Shown one piece after another: positions 35,801-38,800 of a DNA stretch of 64,000 nucleotides. The stretch is from Octopus vulgaris (taxonomy: Eukaryota): positions 6,758,001-6,822,000 of the forward strand of contig OX597832.1 of the NCBI GenBank assembly GCA_951406725.2, written 5' to 3'. Position 1 is the stretch's first letter, and every line of letters starts with the position of its first letter. The translations under genes were made by a program, and so were the position numbers. The notes beneath the pieces are model-generated. The model was not told the origin of the DNA and did not search any database. It saw only the letters and a program-made list of their open reading frames with translations.

Positions 35801-38800
35801 GCCCTTAATACATTTTAACTCTATATTTTTATTTATATTTCAAAACTTGAAATTAAAGAAAATAATAAGAAAATCTAAATAGTAAAAATTAATGAAACTG
35901 ATTTAACTTACTTGAAGAGGTTAATACATGGCCAACAAAGAAGATGCTTTTCTGGCTGTAATAATAATAATAATAATAATAATAATAATAATAATAATAA
36001 TAATAATAATAATAATAATAATGATGATGATAATAATAATGATGATGATGATGATGGTGGTGGTGGTGGTGGTGGTATGATGATGATGAAACATTCCGTG
36101 AATAAATGCAGACAGTGTTTACAGCTCGAGACAAAAGAGGGACTCATAAAAACCAAAGCTATTTCCATTAGAAGAGGAATATTCCAGGGAGACACACTCT
36201 CTCCACTCCTTTTCTGCTTGGCACTGACACCTTTATCTGACATGCTAAATAGAACTGGATGTGGATACAACGGCTACGGCAAAACAATCAGCCACCTCTT
36301 ATATAGGGATGATCAAAAAGTGTACGCTACAAATAATAAACAGCTGGAAATATTACTACAGACAGTACATGGATTTACCAAAGAAATAAACATGAAATTT
36401 GGCTTACAACCTCAAAAAGAGGAAAACTAGTTAAAAGTAGCAACATCACATTAGATAAAGCAAATGAAATAAGAGAATTAGACCAAAGCCAAACATACAA
36501 ACATAGAAATATTATTATTTCTAAGTCTCTCTAAAGGAGACTACGGTAACGGTACTGGATATTAAGAGTTATCGCCAAGCTAATATGGCAGTCCATAAAT
36601 ATAGGAAGAAAGCTGCCGTTGATTAGCTCCAAGAGGCCCTCGTCTTTAGAGAGACTTAGAAATAATATTTCTATTTTTGAAAACCAGTGGATGTATTCCA
36701 CTGAAATTAGGTAAATAATCCTTCGAACAGATAGATGGTCAGCAGCAACGCCTGCTGAGTTCGGCTACTCTGCATTGATAAAGGGCAAATACCCTGAAAC
36801 ATGTCTGCAGATGCCTGACCAGCAAGAGGAAGTGGCTGACCTCCCCTGTTCGAAGGTTATAATGGACATAGGTTCGTGTGTCATATAGCTAGCTATATAA
36901 TAATAGAATAAATGTACTTATCTTAACTTATACTAATTATCAAATAAATATATAACAAAAAATACATGTATTAACTATAAATAATCAAAAAGCATTTAAC
37001 AATATTTCTTACAATAAAAATATAACTTATCTTTTCGAAAAGATATTTATTTGATAATTAGTATAAATTAAGATAAGTACATTTATTCTATTATTATTTT
37101 TTATTATTTATTATCTTGGACCTGATGAGTGACTATATTTTTAAATATATTTTGAAAGGAATTGATTTTATTATCATCATTATCTATTTGAAAATAAAGC
37201 CATGAAATGTGTGTAGTCTTTTTTCTACTATTTACTATTTATTGTACTTTATTGATTTAAAATAAGATTTTTTTTATAGTATATGTTTTCTATATGGTGT
37301 GAATAACATCTTTCTTTATTGAATTGTTTAATAGTGGTTTTTCTCTAAATTATATATATATATATAAACTTACACTTTTCACTGTCCAACAACCACGAAG
37401 GCTCAGTTAAAATTGTTTACCAATTAAGATTATTTTCATTTCTTTTTCATTTCAGTTCAGTTCAGCAACATATTTACTTGTATATATATTAAAATATCTT
37501 TCTATCAAAAGCAGAATCTTTGACAGATTCAAAGGTAGCTTGCAGAATCATTAACAACATTTTGTTCGTGTTTATGTTCTGAATTCAAATTCCACTGAGG
37601 AAGACTTTGTCTTTCATTCTTTCGGGTCAACAAAATAAGTTTCAGCTGAGCACTGGGGTTGATGTAATCAACTTAACCCCTCCCTCGAAATTGCTGGCCT
37701 TGTGCCAGAATTTGAAACCAATATATCAGACCTATTGTCTGATAATAGGTTTTAGGGTTTTGTTTTGGGGGTGAGGGTCGTAAATCACTTCCTAGTTTCG
37801 GTGGGGGGGAGGTTGAAATTTGATATTATTATGATGAGTGGTCAGTCTACATCTATCCATCACTACAGGATTATAGCTTTATGTTTATAGTGTGTATGTA
37901 TGTGCATATACACACACATACATACATACATACATACACAGGCGTATGTACGTACATATATACATACATACATGCATACATGCATGTATACATACATACA
38001 CACATACATACGTACATATATATGACGAACTAACTGTTACTTTCTCAGTTCAAAGCTGGATTTATTGTACATGTGATAAATAATGTAACAAATAAAGAAT
38101 ATTTTGGCAATATTGAATAAATGCATGCAAAACAATTTTCATTATTCTGAACTCATCTTGGACAGGTCCATATGATGGCATTGCCATACCTGCAGAGTTT
38201 ATCTTGAACTGGAAACAATCCAGTAAAGCAATGGATAAACACTCTCAGTAAAGCAATGGATAAAATACACCACTTTAACACCACCAGATAAAGGACTTTT
38301 AGAAGCTGTCCATGAGATTTACCTGAAAGTTCTCCAGAAGAGATTAGTTAAATTGTTCTTGTTGATACCCAGAATTGTTCCCAAGTCATCATAATTCATA
38401 CTGACTAAGAAGCTTCTATAGAAGGCAAATGCAAAAACATTCCACCAAGCGCATTTGCCCTTTTGGCAGCGTGCACTAAGTACTTGGCAATATTCCAAAT
38501 ACCAGGTACCAAACCTCATTCTGCACTTAACCTAAGACTGCAATGCAGTCAAAGAAACAATTTGCAGGAAGATATCTCACAAATGACAACCACATTTATT
38601 TACTGCCATTGCTATTCAGAAATTTCTGAAAATGTCATAGAGTTAGTGTATGTATCATCAATCATGCCATCCTAAGACTCCCACCTCCCTAATGGAATGG
38701 ATATTAGAAGTAGATGGACCTCCTGACTAGTGGAATCCATCATTTCCACAAAAAGTAAAAGAGCATGTATTCCAATGTGATCAGATTCTTTCAGTAAGAA

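Follow-up and report, generated by a model that had tools for sequence, protein, structure and literature searches.

The stretch analysed here is a 64-kb piece of the Octopus vulgaris genome (GenBank assembly GCA_951406725.2, contig OX597832.1, positions 6,758,001 to 6,822,000, forward strand). We call it the window, and all window coordinates below count from its first letter. On its plus strand, at 36769-36811, lies a type-I hammerhead ribozyme motif with U at core position 3 and A at position 8 (U3-A8) in place of the usual C3 and G8. It forms the tip of a 137-nt hairpin (36720-36856), and the hairpin is part of one copy of a 362-nt non-coding repeat. An earlier note on this DNA, made from its letters, had described the motif and its enclosing helices, and we found all of them exactly where it had put them.

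Helix I consists of UCUGCA (36769-36774) and its partner UGCAGA (36806-36811), with six of six pairs formed. The core U3 U4 G5 A6 U7 A8 A9 (UUGAUAA, 36775-36781; U3 is 36775 and A8 is 36780) leads into helix II, whose strands AGGG (36782-36785) and CCCU (36792-36795) make four of four pairs, with A10.1-U11.1 at the base, and are capped by loop 2, CAAAUA (36786-36791). The consensus of Rfam family RF00163 has the same combination of a 4-bp helix II and a CAAAUA loop. Then follow G12 A13 A14 A15.1 (GAAA, 36796-36799), which are invariant in 33 sequences, the palindromic loop 3 CAUG (36800-36803), which with A15.1 and U16.1 reads ACAUGU and is self-complementary, and finally U16.1 and C17 (UC, 36804-36805). 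By standard hammerhead numbering, with the core consensus quoted in PMC7151607, the cut is predicted between C36805 and U36806. Around the motif a rod-like hairpin prolongs helix I through the outer helices ggtcagc (36737-36743)/gctgacc (36835-36841) and ccttcgaacag (36720-36730)/ctgttcgaagg (36846-36856), all on the plus strand. All lineages of the superfamily described below keep this rod with differing sequences.

The hammerhead core consensus is C3 U4 G5 A6 N7 G8 A9 ... G12 A13 A14, A15.1-U16.1 and H17 (PMC7151607). The window motif satisfies all of its fixed core positions except C3 and G8, which are U and A here and which together can still form a Watson-Crick 3-8 pair. In the active structure C3 and G8 are reportedly paired, as Martick and Scott are said to have seen in their crystal structure of 2006, and swapped pairs reportedly keep part of the activity, in work ascribed to Przybilski and Hammann in 2007 and to Nelson and Uhlenbeck in 2008. 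The three-helix junction is of type I, since helices II and III are both capped and the RNA continues from helix I. The motif had been called a minimal hammerhead. This is right for helix III, which is 1 bp closed by a 4-nt palindromic loop, and wrong for helix I (6 bp) and helix II (4 bp), which have canonical sizes. The palindromic loop 3 suggests a motif designed for action as a dimer, in which two copies would form helix III together. Next to helix I lies an internal loop with CUAC on its 5' side (36765-36768, plus strand) and U36812 on its 3' side. In 33 sequences drawn from all lineages, column 2 (T) and column 4 (C) of this loop reach at least 90% conservation, and the T that follows helix I never varies. 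Type-I hammerheads carry loop-1 nucleotides at such a position, and the CUAC loop presumably provides those that dock on loop 2.

The 137-nt hairpin folds at -59.9 kcal/mol on the plus strand (z -6.41), and none of 200 shuffles folded as well. A hammerhead descriptor (Watson-Crick 3-8 pair, UGA, A9, 4-bp helix II, GAAA, U-H, 6-bp helix I) found this single site in the window. By an alternative explanation the hairpin would be palindromic DNA with hammerhead-like words in it by chance, either the inverted repeat of a miniature inverted-repeat transposable element (MITE), a type of DNA transposon, or some other palindromic repeat. Such an origin would fit the minus strand, which folds equally well (-64.3 kcal/mol, z -6.81), and the silence of Rfam at the site, and the descriptor was composed after the motif had been seen. 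However, the descriptor matched in only one of 200 dinucleotide-preserving shuffles of the window, homologous lineages carry the canonical CUGAUGA core, and the copies show 5' truncation and partial tandems with no terminal inverted repeats of their own. We therefore regard a chance resemblance as very improbable. At its loosest setting the descriptor gave a weak second match at 56066-56111, with four of six and three of four pairs. We rejected this as a second hammerhead and attribute it to chance, since the shuffles give 0.55 matches per window at that setting.

We searched the genome (2.8 Gb, 227 contigs) with a 181-nt query around the hairpin and obtained at least 1922 first-look candidates. 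The 40 scored candidates yielded 42 matches, of which the full-length ones are 90-100% identical to the query and two partial ones 88% and 94%. The window was then aligned with 32 copies from 29 loci (33 rows). U3 and A8 are present in all 33 rows, and the whole TTGATAA in 31, the exceptions being TTGACAA and TTCATAA. When a 31-mer pattern was left degenerate at position 3 (Y) and position 8 (R), it matched 198 times in the genome and not once in the control; among 100 listed matches, 99 were U3-A8, one was U3-G8 and none had C3. In addition, the 51-nt ribozyme segment of the window is identical in nine other fetched copies.

The earlier note had left room for two independent decay transitions, by which the window copy alone would have changed C3 to U and G8 to A in a CUGAUGA family. 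Both changes are indeed transitions, the commonest type of decay. However, such private decay is excluded because the near copies, the 31-mer matches and the identical 51-nt segments all carry U3-A8, and the C-G copies found genome-wide belong to other lineages. The proposed alignment of the copies shows U3 and A8 co-occurring throughout the near copies, and a CUGAUGA consensus in which U3 and A8 arise separately was not found.

The 3-8 pair was then counted genome-wide with the pattern N3-TGAT-N8-A-N4-CAAATA-N4-GAAAC, for which reversed-pattern controls gave 0-2 matches. U-A was the state in 671 matches, C-G in 44, U.G in 28 and C/A in 23; another 12 had a purine at position 3 and three a pyrimidine at position 8. 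A Watson-Crick 3-8 pair is thus present in 716 of the 781 matches (671 U-A, 44 C-G and one A-U). The classes that differ by a single change, U.G and C/A, are partly lineages of their own. Helix II UAGG/CCUU is shared by 15 of the 28 U.G copies, and 13 of the 23 C/A copies have GGGG as the 5' strand of helix II. By hand count, helix II among 100 listed U-A matches was AGGG/CCCT in 37, GGGG/CCCT in 12, TAGG/CCTT in 11 and GAGG/CCTC in five, while the remaining 35 had other helices, mostly one base off these types.

At the gathering score Rfam listed no family across the whole window, and relaxing the E value to 10 brought up no hammerhead near the site. This silence is uninformative because the C3-G8 sister loci were missed too: RF00163 found none of five at E up to 10. 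Genome-wide, RF00163 gave six matches above its gathering cut-off of 34 bits, none of them from the 362-nt repeat family. The suggestion that U3-A8 is a natural covariant which strict motif searches miss is borne out by the near copies, by 671 of the 781 census matches, by the C3-G8 sisters and by the silence of Rfam. RF00163 also pointed to other hammerheads in this genome. A lone canonical type-I hammerhead, whose sequence is unrelated to the repeat family, scores 45.5 bits (L031, C5:6546758-6546804, minus strand). Three related 108-nt matches of 34-36 bits (L032, L033 and L036, at C7:15930010, C1:98507175 and C15:53489332) have a long helix II insertion and a palindromic CGAUCG at helix III and represent another hammerhead-bearing repeat.

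Apart from the window's lineage, F1, we distinguished the U-A lineages F1b, F4, F2 and F3, the U.G lineage F3_UG and the C-G lineages Ca, Cb and Cc. All of them align over the whole unit and therefore form one superfamily. They share the type-I layout, with a helix I of 6 bp, a helix II of 4 bp, the CAAAUA loop and a helix III of 1 bp, and differ in the sequences of the helices. F1 has helix I UCUGCA/UGCAGA, helix II AGGG/CCCU and loop 3 CAUG, and a U-A sub-lineage of it has helix I GCUGCA/UGCAGC with the same helix II and loop 3. F1b shares helix I with F1, apart from one copy with UCUACA/UGUAGA, and combines it with helix II GGGG/CCCU and loop 3 CUAG. The single F4 locus has helix I UCCACA/UGUGGA, two of four pairs in helix II and loop 3 CCGG. 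F2 has helix I CAUGCG/CGUAUG, helix II GAGG/CCUC and loop 3 CCGG; F3 and F3_UG have the helix I of F2 and helix II UAGG/CCUU, with loop 3 CCUAGG or CCUGG in F3 and CCUGGG in F3_UG. In the C-G lineages we found helix I UCCAGA/UCUGGA, helix II CGAG/CUCA and loop 3 CUAG, CAUG or CUUG (Ca); helix I UCCAGA/UCUGAG or UUCAGA/UCUGGU, helix II AGAG or GAUG with CCCU and loop 3 CUAG (Cb); and helix I UCUAGA/UCUAGA, helix II UGGG/CCCU and loop 3 CAUGCGUG (Cc).

Pairs were counted on 33 distinct sequences; the Cc locus L045 was left out since MAFFT misaligned its 8-nt loop 3. Paired cells made up 94.0% of this alignment against 78.8% in shuffles, and none of 500 shuffles scored as high. Eleven of the 15 pairs have changed on both sides, including all six of helix I. 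The covariation score was 0.490 and fell to at most 0.105 when the 3' partners were slid, so the covariation is specific to the hammerhead register, which also speaks against a chance palindrome. The 3-8 pair was UA in 25 sequences, CG in five, UG in two and something else in one. Invariant in these 33 pattern-picked sequences were U4 G5 A6 U7 A9, loop 2, G12 A13 A14 A15.1, U16.1 and C17. Loop 3 taken together with A15.1 and U16.1 is self-complementary in every lineage and in nearly all parsed copies, as a two-copy helix III requires, with a loop length of 4-8 nt; its inner pair is AU in 14, UA in nine and CG in seven sequences of the alignment.

The ribozyme is also the better conserved part of the unit. 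F1 is 68-72% identical to F2, F3 and Ca in the hammerhead block and 41-47% in the rest of the unit. The gap is small between F1 and Cb (65% and 58%), and the values for F2 and Ca are 54% and 43%. All 11 natural copies that we folded (F1, F1b, F4, F2, F3, F3_UG, Ca, Cb and Cc) form a long rod with the ribozyme at its tip. These results indicate a true hammerhead lineage whose 3-8 pair has covaried.

A tree was built on 295 columns, with the two 3-8 trait columns removed. It groups F2, F3 and F3_UG, then Ca and Cc, then Cb with F4, F1b and F1, a topology that would need two switches between C-G and U-A. Two separate switches are not significant, as the approximately unbiased (AU) test keeps a single C-G group (p = 0.123). 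Our claim is therefore limited to at least one coordinated switch. Within-lineage identities over 180 nt, in small selected samples of 2-12 copies each, were 99.0% for F3_UG (n=4), 97.4% for F2 (n=4) and 93.8% for F1 (n=12), and lower in the C-G lineages, with 91.7% for Ca (n=3) and 80.6% for Cb (n=2). The value for F3 was not used as it is distorted by a truncated copy. By these figures the variant-core lineages look more recently amplified than the C-G lineages. The U3.G8 wobble lineage (loci L055-L058, e.g. C5:20863629 and C6:10241784) gave 15 exact pattern matches, and over 180 nt the four copies fetched from it agree at 98.3-100%. It is the most uniform lineage sampled and, as far as small samples tell, probably the youngest.

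It is conceivable, and we propose it tentatively, that a single superfamily of this genome contains every member of the compensatory series of the 3-8 pair: C-G, U.G and the dominant U-A, plus a C/A group. If this is true and all cores cut, the series would be a natural record of an active-site pair drifting via a wobble intermediate while the element stayed mobile. If the cores do not cut, the hammerhead retroelement would have been amplified with no need of efficient self-cleavage.

The repeat unit measures 362 nt, has a GC content of 41.7% and carries one hammerhead. Folded as a circle it reaches -115.2 kcal/mol (z -5.9). The copies measure 1-1.5 units, are circularly permuted and begin and end with the same 35-40 nt. 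Microsatellites, (TA)n or similar, flank them, and their 5' truncation is gradual, with coverage dropping from 28.6/29 at -25 nt to 1.3/29 at -150 nt. At the 3' side the copies (loci L002-L030) end in two recurrent classes, ...TTAATA and ...TTTCTAT (...GATAACTNTTAATA or ...AATAATATTTCTAT), which suggests two preferred start sites of reverse transcription. Partial tandems comprise 1.1-2.3 units with a period of about 361 nt, and direct pairs lie 357-365 nt apart. The longest tandem fetched, at locus L069, has about 2.3 units followed by an inverted arm. We found no terminal inverted repeats belonging to the repeat in the fetched copies. At L067 two same-strand copies lie 3.2 kb apart with no coding partner between them; we considered these to be separate insertions.

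Among the first 100 listed U-A matches, 12 pairs lie less than 1.3 kb apart, nine inverted and three direct. By hand count all nine inverted pairs are head-to-head (-/+) and none is tail-to-tail (+/-). Since most close pairs are inverted, many insertions would be unable to form a same-strand dimer. The long hairpin, transcribed from the repeat or from head-to-head arms, might serve mainly as a precursor of small RNAs of the small interfering RNA (siRNA) or microRNA (miRNA) type, with the hammerhead resemblance being secondary. A stable hairpin of 137 nt would suit this role, and the many insertions in inverted pairs would yield double-stranded RNA. However, a small-RNA precursor does not account for an unpaired core that is invariant, for a loop 2 in common with the Rfam consensus or for the palindromic loop 3. 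As the main role of the hairpin we think it improbable; it is compatible with the ribozyme reading.

The copy in the window is itself such a head-to-head pair, a Penelope-type footprint. Its left arm (36498-36643, minus strand) is inverted and 5'-truncated, comprises the 3' part of the unit and is 88.8% identical over 152 nt to unit positions 1-152 of a natural copy. The distal end of this arm is the family's usual ...TTTCTAT, and there is no hammerhead in it. The right arm (36644-36895, plus strand), which carries the hammerhead, is 92.5% identical over 253 nt to unit positions 114-362. It stops at ...GCTAGCTA, where the other copies continue for about 150 nt, according to an alignment to 29 other loci. 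In the outer stem a private 4-nt duplication, AGAT (36731-36734, plus strand), occurs in the window copy only, one of 33 aligned copies. No other copy of any lineage lies within the 64-kb window. This lone truncated insertion is probably inert by itself, because its helix III has only 1 bp and the 64 kb hold no partner on the same strand, which makes it unlikely to cut alone. Most likely it is an inert offspring of active master copies. Where the forward arm stops, AT-rich 55-nt inverted repeats begin (36897-37097, 98% complementary, 91 nt apart), which may be a small palindromic insertion that shortened the arm.

The 362-nt repeat itself encodes neither a reverse transcriptase nor an endonuclease. 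A GIY-YIG-like fragment lies in the window at 26099-26400 (Pfam GIY-YIG, 19.1 bits, below the cut-off). The domain gave 11,709 first-look candidates in the genome, and all 150 that were scored matched. The gene family to which it belongs (window 26099-26686, plus strand; L078:2233-5256; L079:1180-5355) has open frames of 1008-1392 amino acids, and one 1008-residue frame has a weak RVT_1 match (19.1 bits, below the Pfam cut-off) upstream of the GIY-YIG-like domain. This domain order suggests that the family may be Penelope-like, and it is possibly an autonomous Penelope-like element. Rfam reported no hammerhead in the copy at L078. A Penelope-type enzyme would be the partner of the repeat.

The window contains further pieces of reverse transcriptases. 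Three RVT_1 fragments with Pfam scores of 37.6-53.2 bits lie at 35879-36427 (plus strand), 40428-41273 (minus strand) and 57086-57547 (minus strand). The first of them is directly upstream of the repeat and crosses an ATA/ATG microsatellite that is read as poly-Asn/Asp. A different high-copy repeat at 22670-25536, also present at L067 and L032, has a recurring translation and occurs in several copies and in both orientations.

We read the hairpin as the ribozyme domain of a truncated, two-armed copy of a retrozyme-like element, namely a U3-A8 type-I hammerhead predicted to cut after C17, and we give this reading a probability of about 0.65. The U3-A8 core would then be catalytically competent. 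Transcripts with two or more units would pair via loop 3, and each ribozyme would cut after C17 (window C36805). Unit-length RNA would be released and circularised as in described retrozymes, and a Penelope-like reverse transcriptase/endonuclease of the same genome could copy this RNA into (TA)n sites. Four of 24 listed sequencing runs, whose RNA origin is a guess, were compared as assembled contigs with a 1.5-unit copy. Family sequence is present in all four, and some of the contigs bridge the predicted cut site, with no shared stops or usable joints; contigs cannot show RNA ends, and these bear on neither cleavage nor expression.

Several points weigh against this reading, among them the silence of Rfam, the result of the AU test and the many inverted pairs given above. 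The self-cleavage of the U3-A8 hammerhead is a prediction from sequence. At the base of helix II, F1 has A10.1-U11.1 and not the canonical G10.1-C11.1, and G10.1 is named as a metal-binding position (PMC7151607). F3 has U.U at the same place, and the single F4 locus forms only two of its four helix II pairs. The copies behind the pair counts were chosen by a pattern in which core and loop 2 must be intact, they are also the sequences that yielded the structure, and they are related and not independent. The covariation in helix I could stem from selection for the rod and not for catalysis. We found no sequence shared between the repeat and the two Penelope-like copies that we fetched (L078 and L079). 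Finally, the hammerheads of Penelope elements, the class that first showed U3-A8, are described in PMC4209133 as poor cutters in vitro.

The hairpin could also be derived from a hammerhead and dead. The U3-A8 lineages would then descend from a working C3-G8 ribozyme and now be a structured module or nothing, and the repeat would be amplified by a Penelope-type enzyme without self-cleavage. The poor cutting of the Penelope-element hammerheads fits this, as do the three departures of F1 from the canonical form (U3, A8 and A10.1-U11.1), the predicted status of catalysis in the U3-A8 copies and the nine inverted among the 12 close pairs, which are without a same-strand partner. Naiad elements also thrive without canonical hammerheads, and hammerheads may merely parasitise such elements (PMC8557442). 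However, U4 G5 A6, A9, G12 A13 A14, A15.1-U16.1, C17 and loop 2 are still invariant after the switch to U3-A8, and 716 of the 781 census matches have a Watson-Crick 3-8 pair. The changes in helix II and loop 3 are all compensated, which is unexpected of a dead motif. We hold a dead hammerhead to be unlikely, without regarding it as negligible, and prefer the ribozyme with a working U3-A8 core.

By far the commonest hammerhead lineage of this genome, with 671 pattern matches against 44, escapes searches with a strict CUGAUGA box or with Rfam. Since both miss the U3-A8 lineage, censuses of ribozymes and retrozymes in animal genomes may be undercounts. The C-G, U.G and U-A lineages are natural constructs with which the part of the 3-8 pair in catalysis can be gauged in a full-length, tertiary-stabilised hammerhead. 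Moreover, a non-coding ribozyme repeat with such clean Penelope-type footprints is relevant to the question by which enzyme animal retrozymes are copied.

Among known systems, the repeat resembles RF00163 (Hammerhead_1; consensus aUccag CUGAcGA GUCC CAAAUA GGAC GAA ACGc gCGU C cuggAu) in the order of its parts, the lengths of helices I and II, loop 2 and GAAAC. It differs from the model, which expects C3, G8, G10.1-C11.1 and a 4-bp helix III. Its layout fits the description of canonical metazoan hammerheads by Cervera and de la Pena (2014, PMC4209133). The same paper printed the U3-A8 covariation in 2014 for the Cercyon Penelope-like elements of Schistosoma mansoni, with about 1300 matches. 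In text searches, which did not extend to supplements, we found no other publication on U3-A8, C3U/G8A or UUGAUAA hammerheads. U3-A8 hammerheads as such are thus already known, and what is added here, to some extent, is a lineage of canonical layout and the C-G/U.G/U-A series. With Cercyon, as it is described there, the repeat has in common U3-A8 in place of C3-G8, a high copy number, the Penelope-type link, motifs that are often near each other on opposite strands, and the dimer design. The minimal hammerhead ribozymes (min-HHRs) of Cercyon have neither helix III nor loop 3, a helix II of 7-8 bp, a helix I of 4-5 bp and no loop-loop contacts, and min-HHRs are described with an unpaired base 5' of helix II. 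The repeat has a 6-bp helix I, a 4-bp helix II with CAAAUA and a 1-bp helix III, and structurally shares with the min-HHRs only U3-A8.

Craig et al. (2021, PMC8557442) describe insertions of Penelope-like elements as frequently 5'-truncated and partly in tandem, with an inverted and 5'-truncated copy at their 5' end and a preference for (TA)n microsatellites. All four footprints occur in the repeat family, and the window copy itself is head-to-head; Penelope-like elements differ in having genes of their own. The hammerheads of newt satellites and viroids act as dimers (Forster et al. 1988, cited in PMC4209133 and PMC6155905). There the core is canonical and dimer action has been demonstrated, whereas in the repeat it would follow from the same design: a helix III too short alone and a palindromic loop that allows an extended helix III between two copies.

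The closest parallel to our reading is found in the retrozymes. Animal non-LTR (non-long-terminal-repeat) retrozymes are described as elements of 150-450 nt with less than 45% GC and a type-I hammerhead (Cervera and de la Pena 2020, PMC7229834), and retrozymes have been described as derived from Penelope-like elements (Li, Clavereau and Pollet 2026, bioRxiv 10.64898/2026.07.22.740005). The published families, as these sources present them, have C3-G8 where the repeat has U3-A8, and form long tandem arrays where the copies of the repeat that we examined are mostly 1-1.5 units or head-to-head arms. For them circular RNA and self-cleavage have been demonstrated, while the repeat is known here from sequence alone. 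Nevertheless, it agrees with them in its unit size of 362 nt, its 41.7% GC, its one type-I hammerhead, its strong self-pairing, its thousands of copies and its co-existence with putative Penelope-like elements.

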